Counted from the first letter of the stretch, positions 9,707-41,094 are shown. The stretch: DNA of 49,060 nucleotides from Clostridiales bacterium (GCA_918285425.1 CAKJZE010000049.1:1-49060), one strand, 5' to 3'. Numbers and translations: made by a program. Notes: generated by a model not told the origin, from the sequence alone.

Positions 9707-10561
9707 TTAATCCTGCTTTTCCTCTAAAACAACTTTATCTTTATACGCATATATCTGTATTGTTTTAAGTCCATCATAGACGATTATTGCTTCATATTTC
9801 CCGTTCGAATTCAATGTGACTGCTGCTTCCAGATCTTTTTTAAAATCATCACCATCTAAATGAAAAAATGTTGCAATAATTTCATCTGACTTTTGAGCTA
9901 TTGTTACATTAACGTTACAATCAAACAGACCAAGTTTATCATCAAGTTCATAAATCTCGTTTTGCATAATTTCCCTTAATTTGACAACACAGTTAAAAGT
10001 AAAATTAAAATCATTATATGTTACAGTTGCAACGGCGGCAGTATTGTATTCACCAGACCACGCAATTTCCACAGTTGCATCTTTAAGTTTAACAACTTTC
10101 TCTTCACCATTGCTGTAAAGCACAGTGAAGTCCACATCATCAAGACAGTCATTTTCCCCATCAAATACAACAATGTTTGTTTGCTTTACTGTTGCAGACT
10201 TAATATAAACCGCCTTCACTTCATATTGAAAAGTGAAATTTTGACTTAAGTATGATATAACAAAACTTTTTGTTCCAACAGAAGAGGTGTCAAGCACATT
10301 TCTGTAAACATCACCCAGCTTAAAAGTTTGTGAAGATTGGTCAGAAAAGTTAATTGTAACATCATAAAGCTGAAGATTTATTGCTTCACCAACAAAAAAC
10401 TCATCAGTGTAAAACGCATCTTCAATAACAATACTTTGCACTTGTTTTTGTGTTGAATTGTTATTTGCATTTTCTTTATCTGATCCTGCACATGAGCAAC
10501 ATGTTATAATGACAAACGCAAAAAGAAAAATGTATAATCCCTTCTTAATAAACTTTTTCAT
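9707..10561 (-). CDS. Putative lipoprotein, beta-rich
   Basis: Start placed at ATG 10561 (MKKFIKKGLYIFLFAFVIITCCSCAGS), which gives a signal peptide with cysteines at the cleavage region. The rest is beta-strand-like repeat sequence. Confidence 0.6.
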   Translation of the reverse strand: MKKFIKKGLYIFLFAFVIITCCSCAGSDKENANNNSTQKQVQSIVIEDAFYTDEFFVGEAINLQLYDVTINFSDQSSQTFKLGDVYRNVLDTSSVGTKSFVISYLSQNFTFQYEVKAVYIKSATVKQTNIVVFDGENDCLDDVDFTVLYSNGEEKVVKLKDATVEIAWSGEYNTAAVATVTYNDFNFTFNCVVKLREIMQNEIYELDDKLGLFDCNVNVTIAQKSDEIIATFFHLDGDDFKKDLEAAVTLNSNGKYEAIIVYDGLKTIQIYAYKDKVVLEEKQD

Positions 10562-10633
10562 ATCAAGCAAAATTATACAAATTTCAACAAAATGTGTCAA
10601 TAAATATTCGTCAAAATTCGTCAAAAATTGACA

Positions 10634-11182
10634 TTACTTTTTTGACTCAATATATCTTATAACTTCATTTTTAAACTTTCTTTTACTGCAGTTACCAAGT
10701 ATATAGTGGTCAGCAATACCAATAGGTCCACCTTTTTCAATATTTTCAATCTCTGCAATATCACGCGCAAGCGACTCTTCCGCTGTAAGTGGTCTGAAAG
10801 ACCTTATTGCCAATCTTTCACGACGAAGTGGTGCATCAGTTGCAATGCAAAGCACCTCAAAGTCGTCGCCAAATTTTTCTTTAATTACCTTATATTCACT
10901 CCAAGAATACATGCTTTCAATAACAACATTTCCCTTTTTATGTTCTTTTTCAATCCTTGGCAAGAATATTCTTGCATAAATTCCCTTATCCCCACTTGCA
11001 CGCAACTGTTCTCGCACTTTTTTCTCGTTTTCAGGGTTGATTTCAAGTCCAAGCTCCTTCATTTTCAAAAATGTAGCTTCCCCAAAATAAATTTTTGTCC
11101 AGCCACGTTTTTCAAACTCTTCAACAGCAACACTCTTACCGCTGCCGCACATACCAACAACGGCGATTATCTTATGTCCCAT
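10634..11182 (-). CDS. P-loop nucleotide/nucleoside kinase-like protein (dephospho-CoA-kinase/UPF0200-like)
   Basis: 182 aa with Walker A VVGMCGSGKS at the N-terminus. Size and layout are typical of small nucleotide kinases. Confidence 0.55.
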   Translation of the reverse strand: MGHKIIAVVGMCGSGKSVAVEEFEKRGWTKIYFGEATFLKMKELGLEINPENEKKVREQLRASGDKGIYARIFLPRIEKEHKKGNVVIESMYSWSEYKVIKEKFGDDFEVLCIATDAPLRRERLAIRSFRPLTAEESLARDIAEIENIEKGGPIGIADHYILGNCSKRKFKNEVIRYIESKK

Positions 11183-31791: not shown

Positions 31792-31821
31792 AAAAGTCCG
31801 AGAGTTTACTCGGGCTTTTTT
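31792..31821. terminator. Bidirectional hairpin overlapping the stop codon of the 31806-32579 methyltransferase
   Basis: aaaa-gtccgag-agttta-ctcgggc-tttttt. On the minus strand it follows the MTase stop, and on the plus strand it lies ~30 nt after the orphan promoter. Confidence 0.6.
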
Positions 31822-32579
31822 AATATGTCCATAACATGAGAGCTTGCACCCAAAAGCTCTTTTTGTTCGCAAACAGATTCCTGATATTCAATAAAAGTCT
31901 TAAAATCCTGTTCGCTCAGCTTATTAATTACTGGTCTTATATAGTCTGTTGCCCCATCAATAGCAATAATTTTATATCTTTTTAAACCGCTTGCACTCTT
32001 CAGTTTATTTATCTCGTTAAGTCTTACATAGCTGTATAAATCTTCTTCTGCATTTGTAACTACAAAATTTTTATCAAGTTTTCCGTCCTTCAAACACTTT
32101 TGTAAATTTCCTTCCTTAAAGGCATAAGTTATCACGGCATACTCGTTCATAAGATACATAATCATTACAAATCCACCAGGTTTAAGAACTCTTTTTGCTT
32201 CATTTATGGCCTTCAACTTGTCATCAAAACTAAAAAGATGATAAAGTGGGCCAAATAGTAATGCAATATCAAAATAATTATCTGCAAATTTCAGCTTAAG
32301 AGCATTACCTTTCACTGCTTTTATTTTGTCATTTTTTTGAGAAATCTGACTGACATTTTTTTGCACAAGCTCAACAGCAGTCACATCATGCCCCATTTGC
32401 GCAAGAGCTGCACTATACCTTCCTGTGCCGGCACCAATATCAATAATTGCCAAATTTTTTCTTTTGCCAATAACTTTGTTTATATACTTCATGGCAATAG
32501 TAAATTCCACCTGTCCATGACGCGATAAAAGGCGTTTATCTTCATTAAATTTGTTGTAATATTTTTCTAAACAATTCAT
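31806..32579 (-). CDS. Class I SAM-dependent methyltransferase
   Basis: 257 aa with motif I IIDIGAGTGRYSAALA and post-I DVTAVE. Confidence 0.75.
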   Translation of the reverse strand: MNCLEKYYNKFNEDKRLLSRHGQVEFTIAMKYINKVIGKRKNLAIIDIGAGTGRYSAALAQMGHDVTAVELVQKNVSQISQKNDKIKAVKGNALKLKFADNYFDIALLFGPLYHLFSFDDKLKAINEAKRVLKPGGFVMIMYLMNEYAVITYAFKEGNLQKCLKDGKLDKNFVVTNAEEDLYSYVRLNEINKLKSASGLKRYKIIAIDGATDYIRPVINKLSEQDFKTFIEYQESVCEQKELLGASSHVMDILKKPE

Positions 32580-32651: not shown

Positions 32652-33629
32652 TTAAGTTATAAACCTACCTATAAACTCAAAAACTTTGTTGAAATAGTTT
32701 TCAGGGTCTTGAGACGCACTATACGCATGCGTGGCACCGGCAACTATGAATTTTTCTTTTTCAATTTGACTGTTTGCATCATACACCTTTGTAAGCATTT
32801 CAAGAGGGACAAAAGTGTCTTTATCGCCATGAATAAATAACATAGGAACTTTTGATTTTTGCAGTTGAGCGGTTGCATCCATTTGCTTTAAATTTACACC
32901 AGTTTTCAGCTGTGCATAGGTATTTAAAGCACCCAAAGCAAAACCTCTCAACGGTATGTTGATGAAATTGTCAGCAACATAGGCGTATTGATCATACACA
33001 CTTGAATATCCACAATCCTCAACCGCCACCTTAACATTACTTGGCAAATCTTCTCCACAAGTCATCATCACTGTTGCCGCACCCATAGACACCCCATGCA
33101 AAACTATTTGAGATGTTGGGAATTTGTTTATTATTTTCTCTATCCAACACAATAAGTCCTTGCGGTCAGTATAACCCATACCAACATACTTACCTTCACT
33201 CTTGCCATGTCCTTTTAAATCGGGCAACAGCACATTAAAACCTTGATTATAATAGTTGTAAGCATAAAGACTCATACCTTCTGCCTTATCCCTGTAACCA
33301 TGCACACAAACTGCCCACTTATCTGAATTTGTGTTTTGTTTAAACTCGTAAGCATGTAACCTATAACCATCAAAAGATGTGATATAAACATCTTCTTTAT
33401 CAATTTGATCAAACCAGTCCTTTTGCTGTAATGGTTTAGGCATTTCTATATTTACATTTTTAGGTATATTTGATGTTGTTGCAAACGTCGCATCAAGTGA
33501 AAATGTAAACAAATAGTATCCCAGCGTTAAGTAAACAGACAAAATGAAGAAAATTAAAAAGGTTAGCATAGAAAAAGCAGCCACCAACACCATTCTCATC
33601 TTTTCTTTTTTATAAGAACTTCTCATCAT
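32652..33629 (-). CDS. Membrane-anchored alpha/beta hydrolase (alternative TTG start at 33644)
   Basis: N-terminal TM, then VHGYRD, the nucleophile elbow LHGVSMGAAT, and FIHGDKDTFVP...GATHAY. Confidence 0.7.
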   Translation of the reverse strand: MMRSSYKKEKMRMVLVAAFSMLTFLIFFILSVYLTLGYYLFTFSLDATFATTSNIPKNVNIEMPKPLQQKDWFDQIDKEDVYITSFDGYRLHAYEFKQNTNSDKWAVCVHGYRDKAEGMSLYAYNYYNQGFNVLLPDLKGHGKSEGKYVGMGYTDRKDLLCWIEKIINKFPTSQIVLHGVSMGAATVMMTCGEDLPSNVKVAVEDCGYSSVYDQYAYVADNFINIPLRGFALGALNTYAQLKTGVNLKQMDATAQLQKSKVPMLFIHGDKDTFVPLEMLTKVYDANSQIEKEKFIVAGATHAYSASQDPENYFNKVFEFIGRFIT

Positions 33630-33758
33630 CTTTAGTTTGCCCAAATTTCAAATTTTTAAATATTAAAAAATGATAAATTTATTACAAGTTTTCAGGTATA
33701 AACATACAAAAAGTAAAATGTTATCACTTTCTGGTTTATTTCTAAATATGAAAAATAT

Positions 33759-33787
33759 TTGACATTTAACATAATTCATGCTATCAT
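33759..33787 (+). promoter_or_regulatory. Sigma-A-type promoter of the radical SAM cassette
   Basis: TTGACA (33759-33764), a 17-nt spacer and TATCAT (33782-33787). Confidence 0.5.
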
Positions 33788-33811
33788 ATAAATATAAGAT
33801 TAGAGGGGGCC

Positions 33812-33844
33812 ATGAGTATGAACTTTAAACTTGTAGGAAATTAA
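33812..33844 (+). CDS. Micro-ORF MSMNFKLVGN (10 codons; 8 if started at the second ATG, 33818). Candidate leader or precursor peptide, speculative.
   Basis: GAGGGGG (33803-33809) sits 8 nt upstream of the second ATG. The ORF ends 4 nt before the terminator hairpin, and it is the only ORF in the ~100-nt leader. Confidence 0.2.
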   Translation: MSMNFKLVGN

Positions 33845-33848
33845 AAAT

Positions 33849-33878
33849 GAAACCGATTTAATCGGTTTCTTTATTTTA
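33849..33878 (+). terminator. Intrinsic terminator/attenuator between the promoter and the radical SAM gene
   Basis: gaaaccgat-tta-atcggtttc, a perfect 9-bp stem, followed by tttatttta. It ends directly against the rSAM RBS (taggagaa, 33879-33886), 12 nt before the ATG at 33891. Confidence 0.6.
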
Positions 33879-33890
33879 TAGGAGAATTAA

Positions 33891-35084
33891 ATGGAAAAAT
33901 ATTCATCAATCAGATTAGAAATAACCTCAAAGTGTAACTTAAAATGTTCTTATTGTCATAATGCAAAATATGCAAATAATGCAGAAGACCTTTCTACTGA
34001 AGAAATCTTAAAACTTATAAGAAATCTTAAGAGCTATTATCCAATAAATAAAATTTTACTAACCGGAGGTGAGCCTTTGTGCCAACCAGATTTAGTAAAA
34101 ATTGTTCAAGAAATAACAAACTTAAAAATTAAGCCAGACATGGTTTCAAATGGTACATTGTTAAATAAAAATTTTATAAAAGAATTAGATAATGCTGGTT
34201 TAAAACGTATAAGGTTAAGTATAGACGAAATCGGCAATAAAAGTAAGATTAGGGGGACTTCGTCGCCTAAAGACCTTTGGCTTAAAGTGAAAGAAATACA
34301 AGAAAATTCAAATATTGAAGTTTGTATTCATTCTGTATGTTCTCCAAATAATGTAAATATTTTAGATAAATTATATAAACAAGTTGTTGCTTCTGGGGCT
34401 AAAAGGTGGAGAGTGTTTGACATAGGCTATCAAGGCGGATTTGCAAACGAATACAAAAATTACAATTTAGTTAGATATTATAAAACCTATATTAAAAAAG
34501 CAAGAGCTATACTAAAATCATATATTAAAAATGAAGTATATAAAAAGCTTGACATAGAAATAAGCAATATATTTAGAACAGACTTTTTAAAATTATCGCA
34601 AGAAGATATTGATACACTTAATTTACAAAAAGAATTAGAAATAAAACTTAAAAGTAATCCTTGTGATTATGTAAAAGGTCACCAACTAACTATAAGAAGT
34701 GATGGAAAAGCGTCATTATGTCAATACTACAGGAATTGTATTTTTGACTATAAAAAGAATAGTTTTGACATAGCAAAAACTGTAAAAAATAAACAACCTT
34801 GTACGGAAAATGATATGTTCGTCAAAAATGTACCATATTGTAAAAATTGCAAATACATATTAATGTGCAGTTGTGGCTGCAGATCAAGGGCCGAATTTTT
34901 TACACATAATATTTATGAAGCAGATCCTATTGCATGTTATTTATCAAAAGAAGTTGATAAAAAAATCATGCCATTACTGCCATCAAACATAAAAAATTAT
35001 TATAATGCAATAAAAATCCAATCAGGAACGGAACCAAAATACAATTATAAAGATGTAAAAACTTTTTTAAGGTCACAAAAATGA
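33891..35084 (+). CDS. Radical SAM enzyme with C-terminal SPASM domain
   Basis: 397 aa with CNLKCSYC (CX3CX2C) at residues 14-21 and LLTGGEPL. The SPASM signature is CDYVKGHQLTIRSDGKASLC (CX13GX4C) plus CKNCKYILMCSCGC (CX2CX5CX3C). Confidence 0.85.
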   Translation: MEKYSSIRLEITSKCNLKCSYCHNAKYANNAEDLSTEEILKLIRNLKSYYPINKILLTGGEPLCQPDLVKIVQEITNLKIKPDMVSNGTLLNKNFIKELDNAGLKRIRLSIDEIGNKSKIRGTSSPKDLWLKVKEIQENSNIEVCIHSVCSPNNVNILDKLYKQVVASGAKRWRVFDIGYQGGFANEYKNYNLVRYYKTYIKKARAILKSYIKNEVYKKLDIEISNIFRTDFLKLSQEDIDTLNLQKELEIKLKSNPCDYVKGHQLTIRSDGKASLCQYYRNCIFDYKKNSFDIAKTVKNKQPCTENDMFVKNVPYCKNCKYILMCSCGCRSRAEFFTHNIYEADPIACYLSKEVDKKIMPLLPSNIKNYYNAIKIQSGTEPKYNYKDVKTFLRSQK

Positions 35085-35833
35085 ATAATATTGGATGTAA
35101 ATTAATAATAGATGATTTTGAAAACCCTTCCTATGATATCAACCTTCCTTCACACATAGAATTAAAAGTAAACAAATTTTTATTAAATGATTATAACCTA
35201 AAAAAAATTATTCAGTTTTTGTCTGAAAATAATATTAAATTTTCTTTTCACTTGCCTAAATCATTGTTATATGATAAATCAGACTTTAATACAACAATGA
35301 AATTTATAAAATTTTTATCAAAAATAAAATATACTAATACGATACATTTAATATTTCACTTTAAAGACACACCATTGATTAAAGAGAAAAAATTAAATAA
35401 ACTCTTTTCGTTGGCACCAGAAAATTGTATTTTTCTTTTAGAAAATATTGTTACCCATTATGATGACCAATTTATTAATGATTTACAAAATTTCTTTAAT
35501 TTATATGAAAATTACAACATAAAATTTTGCCTTGATATTGGACATTTATTGTTTTCAAAAAAATTTTTCAATATTTCAGATAAATCAATAAACATATTAT
35601 TAAAAAATGTAAAATCAAAAATATTTGAATTTCATATTCATAATTTTAATGAATCTAAAGATCACCTTATGTTCCATAGTTATGATCAAATATTTGAATT
35701 TTTTAACTTAATATATTTACTAAATTCAAATTGTCCTATTATACTTGAATCAAAACATGAGAACTTCAATCAATTAGAACAAGAATTAAAAAATATAGAA
35801 AAATGGAGGAAAAAATATGAGACCTTTTTATGA
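35081..35833 (+). CDS. Xylose-isomerase-like TIM-barrel protein (sugar phosphate isomerase/epimerase, AP-endonuclease-2 fold family)
   Basis: 250 aa in an ATGA overlap with the rSAM stop. Spaced motifs FSFHLP, FLLENIV, FCLDIGHLLF, FEFHIHNF and IILESKH resemble the metal-ligand pattern of the family. Confidence 0.55.
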   Translation: MNNIGCKLIIDDFENPSYDINLPSHIELKVNKFLLNDYNLKKIIQFLSENNIKFSFHLPKSLLYDKSDFNTTMKFIKFLSKIKYTNTIHLIFHFKDTPLIKEKKLNKLFSLAPENCIFLLENIVTHYDDQFINDLQNFFNLYENYNIKFCLDIGHLLFSKKFFNISDKSINILLKNVKSKIFEFHIHNFNESKDHLMFHSYDQIFEFFNLIYLLNSNCPIILESKHENFNQLEQELKNIEKWRKKYETFL

Positions 35834-36554
35834 TAATGGTAGTTTCGTAGAAATATATGAAACAAACCACTCCGCATTTTCATATAAAAGATCAGAAGTT
35901 ATAAAAAATTTTTTAGAAAACAAAAAAATTAAAGTAAAAAACTGCCTGGATTTAGCGTGTGGAACGGGTCTGTTTCTTAACAACTTTTGTAAAACATGCG
36001 ATTTAACAGGAATGGGACTTGATTTTTCTGAAAAAATGATAAATTTTGCAAATAAAAATGTTAACAACAAAAATTTAACATTTTTACTTGGAGATATGAC
36101 AGACTTTAGCATAAATAAAAAATTTGATCTAATTACGTGTAATTATAATTCAATTAATGAAATTTTAGATGATCAAAAACTAAACAATATGTTTATATGT
36201 TGCTATAATCATTTAAACAATGGGGCTTTTTTCATGTTCGATTTTAACACACCAAGAAAGTATATAGAAGGAAAAAAATATAATTACTACAAAGAAAAAG
36301 ACTTTAACATGGTTGCTGAAAGAATTAAAGAAAAGAATAATCTAGTATTATATAACTACCACATTTACAAAAAAACACATAACAACACTTACATAATTGA
36401 AAACACACAAATGTATGAAAAATTTTTTGAGCCAAAATATATTAAAAAGTTGCTCAAAAATAATGGTTTTAAAAAAATACGCTTTTTAGATGAAAATTTT
36501 AAAAGAACCAATGTAAAAAAATTAAAAAGAATTTTTGTGGTTTGCAAAAAATAA
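35817..36554 (+). CDS. Class I SAM-dependent methyltransferase
   Basis: 245 aa with motif I CLDLACGTGLF, then GLDFS. A GGAGGA RBS precedes the ATG, and the gene overlaps the upstream gene by 17 nt. Confidence 0.75.
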   Translation: MRPFYDNGSFVEIYETNHSAFSYKRSEVIKNFLENKKIKVKNCLDLACGTGLFLNNFCKTCDLTGMGLDFSEKMINFANKNVNNKNLTFLLGDMTDFSINKKFDLITCNYNSINEILDDQKLNNMFICCYNHLNNGAFFMFDFNTPRKYIEGKKYNYYKEKDFNMVAERIKEKNNLVLYNYHIYKKTHNNTYIIENTQMYEKFFEPKYIKKLLKNNGFKKIRFLDENFKRTNVKKLKRIFVVCKK

Positions 36555-36614
36555 TCAACATATTCATACTTAAACATATAATAAAAGCAAATACATATAA
36601 TTTAAAAATAATAA

Positions 36615-36646
36615 TAGGATAAGACAAAAATCTTATCCTATTTTTT
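36615..36646. terminator. Terminator closing the rSAM cassette (may also terminate the convergent tRNA-Arg)
   Basis: taggataaga-caaaaa-tcttatccta, a perfect 10-bp stem, followed by tttttt. Confidence 0.6.
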
Positions 36647-36652
36647 ACTCTT

Positions 36653-36729
<77 letters not shown>

Positions 36730-36759: not shown

Positions 36760-36788
36760 AATATAACATATTTATAACTTGTTGTCAA
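36760..36788 (-). promoter_or_regulatory. Sigma-A-type promoter for tRNA-Arg
   Basis: Minus strand has TTGACA (36788-36783), a 17-nt spacer and TATATT (36765-36760). Confidence 0.5.
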
Positions 36789-37008
36789 TTGTATGTATAG
36801 TTGTTACGCTGCAAAATGATGTAAATTTTTAAAGATGATATTAGTTTATTATTGTAAAAATTTATTAAAATGTAAAAACTTAATTATAAATTTAACATAT
36901 TTACTTTTTAAAATTTTGGCCATTTTGCAAAAAATAAAATTGTAATTTTTTTCAACTTTATGCAACTTGTACAAAGAAAAAATTTTTTCATTTTTTTTAA
37001 TTTTTTAT

Positions 37009-37037
37009 TTGACAAATGTTTTTGGTTGGTATATATT
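37009..37037 (+). promoter_or_regulatory. Sigma-A-type promoter for the nrdD operon
   Basis: TTGACA (37009-37014), a 17-nt spacer and TATATT (37032-37037). Confidence 0.5.
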
Positions 37038-37041
37038 GAAA

Positions 37042-37090
37042 CCACAATCTGTTGGGGTGGCTTCCAAAATACAACCACAATATATTGTAT
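37042..37090 (+). promoter_or_regulatory. Two putative NrdR boxes (37042-37057 CCACAATCTGTTGGGG; 37075-37090 CCACAATATATTGTAT)
   Basis: Box 2 matches about 14/16 and box 1 about 11/16 positions of the NrdR palindrome acaCwAtATaTwGtgt, recalled from memory. The boxes are 33 bp centre to centre, lie immediately downstream of the -10, and sit upstream of an RNR gene. Confidence 0.45.
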
Positions 37091-37118
37091 CTATATCACA
37101 TTACAAAGGAGACCAGAT

Positions 37119-39482
37119 ATGATCAAATCTATTATTAAGAGGGATGGAAGAATTGTTGACTATGACATTGCTAAAATTGAAAATGCAATAACAAAAGCAA
37201 TGCTTAGTCTTGGGTATGGTGAGATTAAAGATGTCAAGAAAATGGCAAAAATCACTGAACTTTATTTGTCTGAAAAATTTACAGATAAAATTCCAAGCGT
37301 TGAAGACGTACAAGACACAGTTGAGAGCGTTTTGATGAAAAACGGATATGAAGATGTGGCAAAAGCATACATTTTGTATCGTCGCGATCATGAAAAATTA
37401 CGCAACATTAAGGGTACACTTTTTGACTATAAGGATACAGTTGAAAAATATTTGAATATTGCTGACTGGCGTGTTAAAGAAAACTCTACTGTAACATACT
37501 CTGTCGGTGGACTTATTCTTTCAAACTCTGGTGCAATAACTGCAAACTATTGGCTTAATGACGTGTATGACACAGAAATTGGCCAAGCTCACAAAAATGC
37601 AGATATTCACATTCATGATTTGAGCATGCTTACAGGATATTGTGCAGGTTGGTCACTTAAACAACTTATACAAGAAGGTCTTGGTGGTGTTCCAGGAAAA
37701 ATCACAAGTTCACCAGCATCTCACCTTTCAACACTATGCAACCAAATGGTAAACTTCCTTGGTATTATGCAAAATGAGTGGGCAGGTGCACAAGCATTCT
37801 CTTCTTTTGATACCTACCTTGCTCCATTTGTTAAGATTGATAATCTTTCATACAAAGAAGTTAAACAATGCATACAATCATTTATATATGGCGTAAACAC
37901 TCCATCAAGATGGGGAACACAAGCACCATTCACAAACATAACTCTTGACTGGGTTGTACCTGCAGACCTTGCAGAACTTAACTGCATAGTTGGTGGTAAA
38001 GAGCAAAACTTTAAATACAAAGATTGCGCAAAAGAGATGGCAATGGTCAACAAAGCCTTCATCGAAATCATGATTGAAGGTGATGCTAACGGTCGTGGAT
38101 TCCAATACCCTATTCCAACCTATTCAATCACAAGAAACTTTGACTGGTCAGAGACAGAGAATAACAAATTATTGTTTGAAATGGCAACAAAATATGGAAC
38201 ACCTTACTTCTCTAACTATATCAACAGCGATATGGAACCAAGCGACGTAAGAAGTATGTGTTGCAGACTTCGTCTTGACCTTCGTGAGCTTCGTAAAAAA
38301 TCTGGTGGATTCTTTGGATCAGGTGAAAGCACAGGAAGTGTAGGCGTTGTAACAATCAACATGCCAAGAATTGCATACCTTTCACAAACTGAAGAAGAGT
38401 TCTTTGACAGACTTACAAAGATGATGGACATTTCTGCAAGAAGCCTTAAAGTTAAACGTGAAACCATCACAAAACTTCTTGAAGCAGGACTTTATCCTTA
38501 CACAAAAAGATATCTTGGAACATTTAACAACCACTTCTCTACAATTGGACTTGTTGGTATGAACGAAGCTTGCCTTAATGCAAAATGGATCCAAAAAGAT
38601 ATGACAAATAAAGAAGCTCAAGAATTCACAAAGAAAGTTCTTAACTTCATGAGAAATCGTCTTTCAGACTATCAAGAGATGTATGGTGATCTTTACAACC
38701 TTGAAGCAACACCTGCAGAGTCAACATCATATCGTCTTGCAAAACACGATAAGAAACGTTATCCTGACATCATCACAGCTTCAACAAATGATACTCCATT
38801 CTATACAAACTCAAGTCACCTTCCAGTTGGATACACTGATGATATCTTTAAAGCACTTGATATTCAAGATGATTTACAGACACTTTACACTTCAGGTACT
38901 GTGTTCCATGCATTCCTTGGACAAAAACTTGAGGATTGGAAAGTTACAATGAATCTTGTAAGAAAGATTGCTGAAAACTACCGTTTGCCATACTATACAA
39001 TCAGCCCAACATACTCAATTTGCACAACTCATGGTTATATTGAGGGTGAAAAATATGTTTGTCCTGACTGTGGTAAAACAACTGAAGTTTACAGCAGAAT
39101 TACTGGTTACTATCGCCCTATCGCAAACTGGAACGATGGTAAATCACAAGAGTTTGAACAAAGAAAAGAGTATGACATTGCAAACTCACATCTTACACAT
39201 TCTGGTTGTGCTTGTCACGCAACCACACAGCTTGAAGAAACAGATGTAAACGTTGATCGTCCATTACTTTTCACAACAAAGACTTGTCCAAATTGCAAAA
39301 TGGCAAAGATGCTTCTTGCAAAAGCAGGCGTTGATGTTGAAATCATTGATGCAAACGAAAACGCAGACCTTACAAAACAATATGGCGTTGTTAAAGCACC
39401 AACAATGTTTGTCAAAGTCAATGGTGAAAATGTGAGACTTGAAAATGTTTCAGACATCAAAAAATTCGTAGAAGCTAAATAG
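37119..39482 (+). CDS. nrdD: Anaerobic ribonucleoside-triphosphate reductase (class III, NrdD) with N-terminal ATP-cone and a C-terminal thioredoxin-fold (CPNC) extension
   Basis: Start placed at ATG 37119, preceded by AAAGGAG. The ORF-track start at 36960 covers the promoter and NrdR boxes. Recognised elements are the ATP-cone MIKSIIKRDGRIVDYD, MCCRLRLD, CPDCG, and the glycyl-radical motif SRITGYYRP. About 100 extra aa then follow, containing LLFTTKTCPNCKMAK...VKAPTMFV. Confidence 0.95.
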   Translation: MIKSIIKRDGRIVDYDIAKIENAITKAMLSLGYGEIKDVKKMAKITELYLSEKFTDKIPSVEDVQDTVESVLMKNGYEDVAKAYILYRRDHEKLRNIKGTLFDYKDTVEKYLNIADWRVKENSTVTYSVGGLILSNSGAITANYWLNDVYDTEIGQAHKNADIHIHDLSMLTGYCAGWSLKQLIQEGLGGVPGKITSSPASHLSTLCNQMVNFLGIMQNEWAGAQAFSSFDTYLAPFVKIDNLSYKEVKQCIQSFIYGVNTPSRWGTQAPFTNITLDWVVPADLAELNCIVGGKEQNFKYKDCAKEMAMVNKAFIEIMIEGDANGRGFQYPIPTYSITRNFDWSETENNKLLFEMATKYGTPYFSNYINSDMEPSDVRSMCCRLRLDLRELRKKSGGFFGSGESTGSVGVVTINMPRIAYLSQTEEEFFDRLTKMMDISARSLKVKRETITKLLEAGLYPYTKRYLGTFNNHFSTIGLVGMNEACLNAKWIQKDMTNKEAQEFTKKVLNFMRNRLSDYQEMYGDLYNLEATPAESTSYRLAKHDKKRYPDIITASTNDTPFYTNSSHLPVGYTDDIFKALDIQDDLQTLYTSGTVFHAFLGQKLEDWKVTMNLVRKIAENYRLPYYTISPTYSICTTHGYIEGEKYVCPDCGKTTEVYSRITGYYRPIANWNDGKSQEFEQRKEYDIANSHLTHSGCACHATTQLEETDVNVDRPLLFTTKTCPNCKMAKMLLAKAGVDVEIIDANENADLTKQYGVVKAPTMFVKVNGENVRLENVSDIKKFVEAK

Positions 39483-39490
39483 GAGCAAAT

Positions 39491-40405
39491 ATGTTTGACG
39501 TAATTATTATAGGGGGCGGAATGGCAGGTATGACATCTGCCCTCTATTGTTTAAGAAATAATAAAACTGTTCTCGTCATAGAAAAAGAGGCTGTGGGTGG
39601 ACAAATCGCCAAGTCTCCTAAAGTAGAGAACTACCCAACAATAAAGCAAATTTCAGGCACTGAACTTGCAGACCAGCTGTTTGATCAAATTATGGAGCTT
39701 GGCGCAGAGTTTGAGCTTGACAATGTAAAGCAAATATCAAAAGAAAACAACATTTTTAATGTAGTTACAGAGTACAACACATATCAAGGCAAGTCTGTCA
39801 TCATTGCAACCGGATCAAAACCAAGAATGCTGGGCATTGAAAATGAAGAAAAATTACTTGGCAAAGGCGTTTATTATTGTGCAATCTGTGATGGCCCATT
39901 TTTTGCCGGCCAAGAGGTTGTTTTGATTGGTGACGCCAACAGTGCAATGCAGTATGCTCTTATGCTTTCAGGCTATTGCACAAAGGTTAAAATGATGGCA
40001 CTTTTCGATCATCTTTTTGGTGAAAAAAGCCTTCAAGATGCCGTTAACAGAACTGAAAACATAGAAATTCGCTATAATATGGAAGCCGTTAAATTTATTG
40101 GCGAAGAAAACATAAACAGTGTGCTTTTTAAGGACAAAATCACTGGTGAGGAGGTTGTTTATAACACCCCTGCAGTATTTGTTGCCATTGGACAAGTTCC
40201 TGACAATAAGATCTTTTCAGAGCTTGCCGAACTTGACAAAGCTGGCTATATTGTGGCTGACGAAAAATGCACAACAAAAACTGATGGTTTATTTGTTGCC
40301 GGCGACTGCAGAGTTAAGCAAGTTCGCCAAGTTACAACAGCGATTGGTGACGGAGCTGTTGCAGCTGTATCAGCGTGCAGATACATTGACAGTATGGAGT
40401 TTTAA
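39491..40405 (+). CDS. Thioredoxin-disulfide-reductase-family flavoprotein lacking the canonical NADPH-binding motifs
   Basis: 304 aa with FAD motif IIIGGGMAGMTSA and redox CAICDG. Where E. coli TrxR has GGGNTA and HRRDGFRA, this protein has GDANSA and ALFDHLFG. C-terminal FVAGDC is present. Confidence 0.8.
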   Translation: MFDVIIIGGGMAGMTSALYCLRNNKTVLVIEKEAVGGQIAKSPKVENYPTIKQISGTELADQLFDQIMELGAEFELDNVKQISKENNIFNVVTEYNTYQGKSVIIATGSKPRMLGIENEEKLLGKGVYYCAICDGPFFAGQEVVLIGDANSAMQYALMLSGYCTKVKMMALFDHLFGEKSLQDAVNRTENIEIRYNMEAVKFIGEENINSVLFKDKITGEEVVYNTPAVFVAIGQVPDNKIFSELAELDKAGYIVADEKCTTKTDGLFVAGDCRVKQVRQVTTAIGDGAVAAVSACRYIDSMEF

Positions 40406-40407
40406 TT

Positions 40408-41094
40408 ATGCAAATACTTGGAATTGAAAAAGTTTCAATGGTGGATTTTCCAAATAAAATTGCAACAACCGTATTTACTGGCGGCTGCAATTTTCGTTGT
40501 CCGTTTTGCCATAACTCTGGCATAGTCAAACAAGAGTATTCTGTTGTTGATATAAACGAATTTTTTGAATATCTTGAATCTCGAAAAAAACTGCTTGATG
40601 CAGTGGTTGTCAGCGGCGGAGAACCAACACTTCAAAACGACCTTCCAGAGTTTATTGCAAAGATAAAAGCAATGGGCTATTTGGTAAAACTTGACACAAA
40701 CGGATCAAACCCTTTTATGCTTAAAAATTTACTTGAAAAAAAGCTTGTTGACTATGTGGCAATGGACATTAAAAACAATTTTGAAGATTATGACAAAATA
40801 ACCGGAATCAAAAATATCAATACTGAAAACATTAAAAAATCTTTGGAATTATTACATCAATTTAACACTCCTTACGAGCTTCGTACCACACTTGTTAACG
40901 AGTTTCACAAGGAAGCAAACATAGAAAAACTTGCACAAGACCTTACAGGTGAACATATACTTTATCTGCAAAAATTTGTTGATACTGACACCTGCTTTGA
41001 GCATGGGCTTTCAGAAGTTGACAAGATGACAGCTGTGTACTTCACTGGAATACTTAAAAAGACAATTGACAACGTTCTACTCCGCGGATATTAA
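40408..41094 (+). CDS. nrdG: Anaerobic ribonucleotide reductase activating protein (radical SAM)
   Basis: 228 aa with FTGGCNFRCPFCHN, VVVSGGEPTL and KLDTNG. Confidence 0.9.
   Translation: MQILGIEKVSMVDFPNKIATTVFTGGCNFRCPFCHNSGIVKQEYSVVDINEFFEYLESRKKLLDAVVVSGGEPTLQNDLPEFIAKIKAMGYLVKLDTNGSNPFMLKNLLEKKLVDYVAMDIKNNFEDYDKITGIKNINTENIKKSLELLHQFNTPYELRTTLVNEFHKEANIEKLAQDLTGEHILYLQKFVDTDTCFEHGLSEVDKMTAVYFTGILKKTIDNVLLRGY

Follow-up and report, generated by a model that had tools for sequence, protein, structure and literature searches.

In mycofactocin biosynthesis, the modifying chemistry takes place at the extreme C-terminus of the precursor peptide (Gly-Val-Tyr) and is followed by hydrolytic release and by tailoring that includes methylation. 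MftC, the radical S-adenosylmethionine (SAM) enzyme with a SPASM domain of this pathway, and PqqE of pyrroloquinoline quinone (PQQ) formation need partners, MftB and PqqD, respectively, that provide the recognition element (RRE) for peptides that are made on the ribosome and modified afterwards (RiPPs). Such an element is not universal among enzymes of this type, as the anaerobic sulfatase-maturating enzyme (anSME) lacks an RRE and binds short peptides directly. A very short, directly translated precursor gene is known from microcin C, where mccA comprises only seven codons (MRTGNAN), the terminal Asn is invariant in all MccA-like peptides (PMC4010828), and the relative amounts of peptide and enzyme depend on a terminator located between mccA and mccB (PMC4231749). 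Here, we analyze a cassette at positions 33,759 to 36,646 of a 49,060-nucleotide stretch of DNA from a Clostridiales bacterium (GCA_918285425.1, CAKJZE010000049.1:1-49060), hereafter termed the window. An initial annotation had described a trio of genes for a radical SAM/SPASM enzyme, a TIM barrel protein and a methyltransferase, and had mentioned an upstream micro-open reading frame (micro-ORF) only in passing. This micro-ORF is the key to the cassette. We are highly confident that the micro-ORF, a hairpin, the radical SAM gene and the TIM barrel gene constitute a real, conserved and undescribed unit. With moderate confidence, we read this unit as a minimal RiPP-type pathway that acts on the C-terminus of the encoded octapeptide.

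A conserved micro-ORF, hairpin and enzyme pair

Thirty-three related loci were fetched, most of them from Clostridia genome bins and gut metagenome assemblies, and 32 of these were informative, the remaining one (L114) being a rearranged fragment. Twenty-two related loci stem from one metagenome scan with a sub-alignment of the C-terminal part of the radical SAM protein, and several of these are labelled human gut. A profile search of genome contigs with the full radical SAM alignment picked generic motifs and yielded one true member (L006) among 80 loci. A micro-ORF that is preceded by a Shine-Dalgarno sequence and ends in Gly-Asn-stop accompanies the cassette in 32 of the 32 informative loci. 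It comprises eight codons in 30 loci, nine in one and 19 in one, and every homologous micro-ORF has a similarly strong Shine-Dalgarno sequence (GGAGG or similar). The consensus of the octapeptide is MD(M/F/L)xTxGN, with MDMRTAGN as the commonest version; MDLRTAGN, MDFGTAGN, MNFGTAGN, MDFGTWGN, MDFRTMGN, MDFMTMGN, MDARTTGN and MDMMCRGN also occur, and the window encodes MNFKLVGN. The 19-residue form of the Gorillibacterium locus, MAKTKKAGGKRIVFIVRGN, keeps only the C-terminal RGN, and Gly-Asn at the C-terminus is the sole part of the peptide that is invariant over all loci. Within the window, the micro-ORF is the only short ORF with a Shine-Dalgarno sequence that ends in GN; if translation began instead at the in-frame ATG at 33812, the product would be MSMNFKLVGN.

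The octapeptide is under purifying selection. The sequences coding for MDMRTAGN in loci L001 and L105 differ at six synonymous and no non-synonymous positions, and over the loci the codons for Gly (GGA, GGT, GGC) and Asn (AAT, AAC) vary, as does the stop codon. As the codon differences for an identical peptide are exclusively synonymous, selection acts on the amino-acid sequence. The position of the micro-ORF is not fixed at the start of an operon. In locus L090 it begins 14 nt 3' of the stop codon of an upstream His-phosphatase gene in a run of overlapping genes and is thus located mid-operon, and in loci L003 and L092 it is followed by three ABC-2 exporter genes before the radical SAM gene is reached.

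In the window, the micro-ORF is followed by a terminator-like hairpin (33849–33869; −10.9 kcal/mol, z-score −3.2). Hairpins 3' of the micro-ORF were found in 19 of the 19 loci tested, with z-scores from −2.4 to −10.9 and with stem sequences that are unrelated to each other. The onset is 4 nt after the stop codon of the micro-ORF in the window and 4–6 nt after it in many loci; in several loci the main hairpin begins 13–31 nt after the stop codon, and a T-run is absent in many. The hairpin is presumably a partial terminator or an RNA-stabilizing stem-loop. An alternative antiterminator fold was found in neither of the two full leaders that were folded, and the window cassette and eight related loci contain no Rfam riboswitch or leader element, except for an unrelated SAM riboswitch near locus L090. 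This riboswitch (10616–10699, minus strand, 66 bits) is accompanied by a truncated S-adenosylmethionine synthetase gene (9764–10546); both are located about 2.5 kb 3' of the radical SAM/TIM cluster and may supply SAM locally.

The TIM barrel gene comes immediately after the radical SAM gene or overlaps it in 24 of the 24 loci in which the contig continues, and additionally in L119 and L120, with one of the 24 pairs being a weak match in a chimeric-looking contig. With just 32 representative clusters among 1.84 billion proteins, the TIM family is a small one, and a word-indexed homologue search with the TIM barrel of the window found only the protein itself. A peculiar ORF was noted in L101 (1665–2813), where about 138 residues of the TIM protein are joined to the C-terminal part of an acyl-CoA ligase. 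Since the genes for TIM barrel, GNAT and phosphatase are arranged normally in L102, which is nearly identical, a chimeric assembly or a recent rearrangement probably accounts for L101.

The conserved unit therefore consists of the micro-ORF, the hairpin and the radical SAM and TIM barrel genes, and not of the trio: the two enzyme genes always occur together, but a homologous methyltransferase is present in only one other cluster type among the loci fetched (L090/L091). The L090 protein is 31% identical to the window methyltransferase over its full length (4e-28), and its gene forms an overlapping run with those for an M3-like peptidase and a phosphatase. Thus, the trio recurs, but only as a minority variant. 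No curated NCBIfam family, Rfam element or paper in the searchable literature describes the combination of enzymes or the peptides. The statement that no system with this exact trio has been described consequently stands for NCBIfam and the searchable literature, but it was attached to a gene set that is not the conserved one.

The commonest layout, found in 20 loci, is peptide, radical SAM enzyme, TIM barrel, a GNAT-like protein of about 230 amino acids and a His_Phos_1 phosphatase. A NUDIX hydrolase takes the place of the phosphatase in L120, and the 128-residue ORF in the phosphatase slot of L110 probably encodes a NUDIX protein, too. The cassette in L086 is flanked by HD-domain genes, and a TldD/PmbA protease gene is located 3' of the cluster in L092. 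The absence of an RRE, protease, transporter and immunity gene, on which the initial annotation had remarked, holds for the cluster in the window; peptidase and exporter genes do occur in variant clusters.

Two further observations concern the variable part of the related loci. First, in 11 of 13 related cassettes a single additional C interrupts the His_Phos_1 gene, each time at exactly the same codon (L086 ~9006, L088 9364, L096 ~9578, L102 ~4564, L105 9477, L109 ~9477, L111 ~6041, L094 ~6453, L095 9576, L104 ~4937 and L006 ~10974). Intact genes read ...AAA TTA GGA... and split genes ...AAA TTA C GGN..., the extra base creating a CGG codon in the 0-frame, so that a +1 shift is needed to continue with Gly-Asp-Leu. 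Because the flanking codons differ (TTA, CTG, ATA, CTA), this looks like a conserved programmed +1 frameshift and not like decay or a sequencing error. Second, a pair of genes for a 2-oxoacid:ferredoxin oxidoreductase (POR_N/TPP_enzyme_C and POR gamma) resides 3' of the cassette on the minus strand, and thus convergent with it, in seven loci (L001, 11444–13706; L102; L105–L109). It may reflect shared genome ancestry or a functional link, e.g., provision of low-potential electrons for the radical SAM enzyme.

Predicted chemistry and competing explanations

The 397-residue protein matches the Pfam model Radical_SAM with an E-value of 4e-24. Its cluster-binding motif CX3CX2C is present as annotated before, albeit at residues 15–22 (C15, C19, C22) instead of 14–21. 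The SPASM signature is complete, in agreement with the initial annotation: both cysteine sets, C258-X13-G272-X4-C277 and C317-X2-C320-X5-C326-X3-C330, plus C349, are present in the alignment and are invariant in 22 homologues, as are the cysteines of the radical SAM motif. The SPASM cysteines are the predicted ligands of two auxiliary 4Fe-4S clusters. The Pfam SPASM model gave no reported match to the protein. The family encompasses 168 clusters at 90% identity, each with proteins of about 400 residues that are 45–54% identical to the window protein and none of them specifically named; the 90% cluster of the window protein itself is represented by a 53-residue fragment, which is why no self-match appeared in the homologue search. 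The best NCBIfam score was 96 bits with a cut-off of 525, and a family model for anSME was not among the best 25 NCBIfam matches, all of which remained far below their cut-offs. With no NCBIfam model near its cut-off, the enzyme falls outside every curated family, as had been supposed. The AlphaFold 2 model has a pLDDT (predicted local distance difference test) value of 91.5, and the best Foldseek matches in the PDB are SkfB, anSMEcpe (template-modelling (TM) scores 0.67/0.72), SuiB, PqqE and CteB. In its modelled fold, the enzyme is thus closest to SPASM enzymes that modify peptides or proteins. Note that a radical SAM motif starting at residue 15 leaves no space for an N-terminal RRE.

The second gene was correctly recognized as encoding a xylose-isomerase-like TIM barrel, even if the match to Pfam AP_endonuc_2 is weak (2.6e-5; 24.5 bits, below the gathering score of 31.1 bits). 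When a profile of the family was compared with the PDB, APN1 (9e-9) and endonuclease IV (1.4e-5) emerged as the best solved relatives. Counterparts of all nine endonuclease IV metal ligands are conserved (H57, H93, E121, D152, H155, H185, D194, H195, E223), with Cys at the position of D194 in two members, and in the family profile the ligands of the C-terminal half coincide with endonuclease IV ligands. CbiR is the best NCBIfam match of all nine TIM members scanned (best E-value 3.5e-14), though below the cut-off (model NF041277, 43.9 vs. 105 bits), and the models for Nfo and MNIO are touched by single members only. The single-sequence AlphaFold 2 model of the TIM barrel is poor (pLDDT 66), and its Foldseek matches are weak and restricted to generic xylose-isomerase-like TIM barrels. 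The kinship with CbiR and endonuclease IV and the conserved metal ligands argue for a trinuclear-metal hydrolase and against an isomerase or dehydratase of the IolE/IolI type. We predict that the protein is most likely a phosphodiesterase-type hydrolase.

Several class I methyltransferase models in Pfam match the product of the third gene, in line with its first description as a SAM methyltransferase. Among solved structures, 1y8c and the amino-sugar N,N-dimethyltransferases TylM1 and DesVI are most closely related to it, and it matches no DNA methyltransferase model in Pfam or NCBIfam. Members of the GNAT family typically N-acetylate amines, and a methyltransferase and a GNAT protein as alternative occupants of the same slot would both suit capping of an amine in the product.

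A pathway can be proposed on this basis. The promoter at 33759 would drive the eight-codon gene, from which MNFKLVGN would be translated directly. Acting as a leaky terminator or stabilizer, the hairpin would cause the mRNA for the peptide to exceed that for the enzymes, as is the case for mccA and numerous genes for RiPP precursors. The RRE-less SPASM enzyme may bind the short peptide directly, in the way anSME does, and perform radical chemistry at the C-terminal Gly-Asn. An obligatory second step, most likely hydrolytic or of phosphodiester type, would fall to the CbiR/endonuclease IV-like trinuclear-metal TIM barrel, and a variable enzyme would finally tailor or detoxify the product, i.e., the methyltransferase in the window and GNAT plus His-phosphatase or NUDIX elsewhere. 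The ABC (ATP-binding cassette) exporter, TldD/PmbA and M3-like peptidase genes of variant clusters are RiPP-style accessory functions and count in favor of a RiPP pathway. Moreover, the earlier argument that a missing precursor and RRE speak for a small-molecule pathway is weakened by the eight-residue ORF ending in Gly-Asn at every family member. Taken together, we give slight preference to the octapeptide being the substrate of the cassette enzymes. The phosphatase, NUDIX and HD genes along with a phosphodiesterase-like core suggest an intermediate that contains phosphate or a nucleotide. It is a tentative and, in our judgement, rather less probable extension that an RRE-less SPASM enzyme and a CbiR/endonuclease IV-like metallo-phosphodiesterase convert the leaderless octapeptide, at its invariant C-terminal Gly-Asn, to a warhead, signal or cofactor linked to phosphate or a nucleotide, which would make the cassette a radical SAM counterpart of microcin C that is widespread in gut Clostridia.

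A number of points weigh against the octapeptide as a substrate. The window peptide has only M1, N2, F3, G7 and N8 in common with the peptides of other loci, and we are not aware of a radical SAM RiPP precursor as short as eight residues. A gene for a PqqD-like protein or RRE is not among the gene calls of any related locus, and we know of no role for TIM barrels of the AP endonuclease 2 type in peptide maturation. A plain peptide also fails to account for the phosphate or nucleotide chemistry suggested by the accessory genes for phosphatase, NUDIX and HD proteins. In the window genes scanned (27.2–43.2 kb), the cassette's own cluster contains no peptidase, exporter or immunity gene. Finally, regulatory leader peptides, too, are marked by a short conserved ORF with a terminator behind it.

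This last point leads to the strongest of the alternatives, which we nevertheless regard as unlikely. The micro-ORF would be a regulatory leader, i.e., a cis-acting sensor that controls read-through by nascent-chain or stop-codon stalling; the peptide would never be a substrate, and the operon would make or detoxify a small molecule, e.g., a nucleotide or another phosphodiester-containing compound. The order of promoter, Shine-Dalgarno sequence, short ORF, terminator-like hairpin with T-run and enzyme genes in the window is consistent with such a leader. At a distance of 4–6 nt in the window and many loci, a terminating ribosome would touch the hairpin, and in the window the ribosome itself may occlude the terminator. 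Conservation is strongest at the C-terminal residues, next to the peptidyl-transferase center, and GNAT, methyltransferase, phosphatase, NUDIX and ABC exporter genes are also typical of operons for resistance or detoxification. However, the two folded leaders offer no alternative antiterminator pairing and the scanned leaders no Rfam element, the main hairpins that begin 13–31 nt after the stop codon are beyond the reach of the ribosome, and many hairpins lack a T-run. In L090/L091 the ORF is internal to an operon, in L003/L092 it precedes transporter genes, one member has a 19-residue version in which only the C-terminal RGN is retained, and the adjoining enzyme groups structurally with SPASM enzymes that modify peptides.

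The affinity of the TIM family to CbiR raises the question of cobamide or tetrapyrrole remodelling, in which a CbiR-like phosphodiesterase, a CobC-like phosphatase and a radical SAM enzyme resembling NirJ, AhbC or AhbD would act on the corrinoid nucleotide loop or a related cofactor. Besides the CbiR matches of all nine TIM members, this idea draws on alpha-ribazole phosphatase CobC as the best match of the His-phosphatase (1e-16) and on several full-length matches of the radical SAM protein to NirJ2, AhbC and AhbD. All these scores are far below the cut-offs (44 vs. 105, 61 vs. 163 and 88 vs. 500 bits), neither a cobalamin riboswitch nor a cob, cbi or btu gene was found in any locus, and the Gly-Asn micro-ORF would be left unexplained, which renders such a function highly improbable. 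Even less credible is a module for nucleic-acid repair, modification or defence that combines an endonuclease IV-like nuclease with a radical SAM enzyme acting on damaged or modified DNA or RNA. While APN1 and Nfo, both AP endonucleases, came out as the closest solved structures in the TIM profile comparison, the Nfo model matches only one of nine TIM members and the model of CbiR, a small-molecule phosphodiesterase, all nine. PADLOC returned only generic or candidate matches, namely of the TIM barrel to the candidate PDC-M70B (5e-9) and of the radical SAM protein to pVip, the latter spanning just the generic radical SAM core (residues 7–178). In addition, the methyltransferase matches no DNA methyltransferase, the neighbors are housekeeping genes and not defence islands, and again the micro-ORF would remain without explanation.

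BtrN has a Twitch domain, which is shorter than a full SPASM domain. The cyclitol or sugar pathway envisaged in the initial annotation, with a BtrN-type dehydrogenase, an IolE/IolI-like isomerase or dehydratase and an O/N-methyltransferase, is the least credible of all. It can appeal to the presence of IolE and IolI in the AP_endonuc_2 superfamily, to the amino-sugar N,N-dimethyltransferases among the relatives of the methyltransferase and to BlsE and DesII, which turn up as distant matches to the structure of the radical SAM enzyme. However, this enzyme has a full two-cluster SPASM domain and is nearest to anSME, SkfB and SuiB. The TIM barrel matches no IolE, IolI or sugar-isomerase model; its nearest kin are CbiR and endonuclease IV, and the metal ligands of the latter are retained in full. 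Conserved neighbors include no gene for an aminotransferase, sugar kinase, nucleotidyltransferase or glycosyltransferase, and the methyltransferase does not belong to the conserved part of the cassette.

Layout and origin of the cassette in the window

ORF search on the plus strand yielded three overlapping genes, which together with a promoter-like site and a closing hairpin substantiate the earlier description of a single unit with its own promoter and terminator (Table 1). The promoter-like site scored best on the plus strand between 33400 and 37200 in a consensus scan and presumably serves as the promoter. The closing hairpin also sits just 3' of the tRNA-Arg gene and can act as a terminator for this gene and the cassette alike. 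The tRNA gene has a promoter-like site of its own on the minus strand (36760–36788; TTGACA, 17-nt spacer, TATATT, upstream TG), about 30 nt 5' of the tRNA.

Table 1. Positions of the cassette features and the adjoining tRNA gene in the window
Feature	Position	Strand	Evidence and remarks
Predicted sigma-70-type promoter	33759–33787	+	TTGACA, 17-nt spacer, TATCAT; 11/12 consensus matches; extended −10 TG
Shine-Dalgarno sequence of the micro-ORF, AGAGGGGG	33802–33809	+	8 nt 5' of the ATG at 33818
Eight-codon micro-ORF (MNFKLVGN plus stop), candidate precursor peptide	33818–33844	+	
Hairpin with 9-bp stem (33849–33869), followed by TTTATTTTAT	33849–33879	+	Between micro-ORF and radical SAM gene
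Radical SAM/SPASM enzyme, 397 aa, without RRE	33891–35084	+	Pfam Radical_SAM, cysteine motifs, AlphaFold 2 model
Xylose-isomerase-like TIM barrel, 250 aa, AP endonuclease 2 superfamily	35081–35833	+	Pfam; family profile compared with PDB
Class I SAM-dependent methyltransferase, 245 aa, variable tailoring slot	35817–36554	+	
Bidirectional terminator-like hairpin closing the cassette	36613–36648 (hairpin 36613–36642)	both	12–13-bp stem, T-runs on both strands
tRNA-Arg(CCT)	36653–36729	−	ARAGORN and Rfam; 3' end toward cassette

The G+C content from 33759 to 36646 is 24.0%, whereas the window as a whole has 32.9% and nrdD 36.9%. The dip reported on the basis of spot counts therefore persists when the whole region is computed. 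Relative to the other 33 genes, the G+C z-scores are −2.0, −4.2 and −3.0 for the three cassette genes in their order, and G+C is lowered at all three codon positions. Two neighbors were considered as further members and rejected: a second methyltransferase (31806–32579), which is unrelated to that of the cassette, and an alpha/beta hydrolase (32652–33644). Both have a normal G+C content and are transcribed divergently.

The cassette indeed lies beside the tRNA-Arg(CCU) gene, whose 3' end faces it at a distance of 99 nt. The proposal that this is a classic site of island insertion found no support, as the Pfam scans of the flanking genes (27.2–43.2 kb) revealed no integrase, and the search for the 3' segment of the tRNA revealed no second copy at up to three mismatches but only A+T-rich chance repeats. 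Judged by its NrdD homologues, the window belongs to an uncultured Clostridia lineage. In the closest relative (91% identity in NrdD), only the group tRNA-Arg(CCT)-nrdD-trxB-nrdG corresponds to the window, and glyS occupies the place of the cassette; since the gene order is otherwise not conserved, this relative does not provide a clean empty site. The hosts are scattered over several Clostridia lineages and one Paenibacillaceae isolate. Lateral transfer of the cassette is plausible because of the low G+C content, the flanking genes that differ for each cluster type and the scattered hosts. Of the horizontal acquisition inferred initially, the part resting on composition and patchy distribution thus remains plausible, and integration directed by the tRNA gene was not demonstrated.

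Some features of the adjacent nrdD region are also worth recording. NrdD of the window and of its relatives has C-terminal glutaredoxin/thioredoxin-like domains (Pfam), and nrdD (36960–39482) is followed by a gene for a thioredoxin-reductase-like flavoprotein (39491–40405) and by nrdG (40408–41094). Given these domains and the flavoprotein gene, the nrdD operon appears to carry its own reductant system. The in-frame extension of nrdD from 36960 overlaps a strong promoter-like site at 37009–37037, and the gene call for the relative (834 aa) includes this extension.

Comparison with described systems

If the octapeptide is the substrate, no radical SAM maturase would be known to act on a smaller gene-encoded substrate, and a SPASM enzyme would recognize it without a leader or RRE. 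TIM barrels of the AP endonuclease 2 type would enter the chemistry of peptide natural products, and their pairing with a SPASM enzyme would have no known precedent in peptide maturation. As the loci mostly stem from Clostridia bins and gut metagenomes, the product could matter in microbiome chemistry as an antibiotic, signal or cofactor. Genome-mining tools that need long precursors or RREs would miss cassettes of this family. Should the ORF be a regulatory leader instead, a strongly conserved sensor peptide of eight residues would still be of interest for research on ribosome stalling.

Each of the described systems resembles the cassette in part. CbiR and endonuclease IV are related to the TIM barrel by the best hidden Markov model match (CbiR), the best solved structures (endonuclease IV, APN1) and the nine ligands, but the scores stay below the cut-offs, cobamide genes and a DNA-repair context are lacking, and the TIM family considered here always forms an operon with the radical SAM gene. 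The enzyme anSME provides the best global structural match to the radical SAM protein (see above), is of similar size, has a SPASM domain with two auxiliary clusters and can serve as a model for direct binding of short peptides. In contrast, its family models do not come near their cut-offs, a micro-ORF and a TIM barrel are foreign to anSME systems, and neither a sulfatase gene nor a (C/S)xPxR substrate motif was found among the neighbors of the cassette.

As in the mycofactocin and PQQ pathways, a SPASM enzyme is encoded beside a small peptide gene, and no exporter is needed. The differences are the absence of an RRE partner, the low NCBIfam scores for MftC (TIGR03962, 58 vs. 265 bits) and PqqE (82 vs. 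381 bits), a precursor of eight instead of 20–30 residues that ends in GN and not in GVY, and a TIM barrel as the partner in place of MftE/MftD or PqqB/PqqC.

With microcin C, the cassette has in common a very short precursor gene (seven codons for mccA, eight here), an invariant C-terminal Asn and a hairpin or terminator between the precursor and enzyme genes. GNAT, methyltransferase and ABC exporter genes are found in some of the clusters, and, judging from the accessory enzymes, phosphate or nucleotide chemistry may be involved. The core enzymes differ, however, being a SPASM radical SAM enzyme and a TIM barrel of the AP endonuclease 2 type, and the penultimate Gly is invariant, too. A ThiF/MccB protein was detected neither in the Pfam lists of flanking genes at related loci nor among the window genes between 27.2 and 43.2 kb, and homologues of MccC, MccF and MccE were not identified for the cassette. 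We rate the cassette as a probable member of the radical SAM-dependent ribosomal peptide pathways, unusual in its candidate eight-residue leaderless precursor and its AP endonuclease 2-type partner. By analogy, the microcin C operon appears to be its closest architectural precedent and mycofactocin its closest chemical counterpart.

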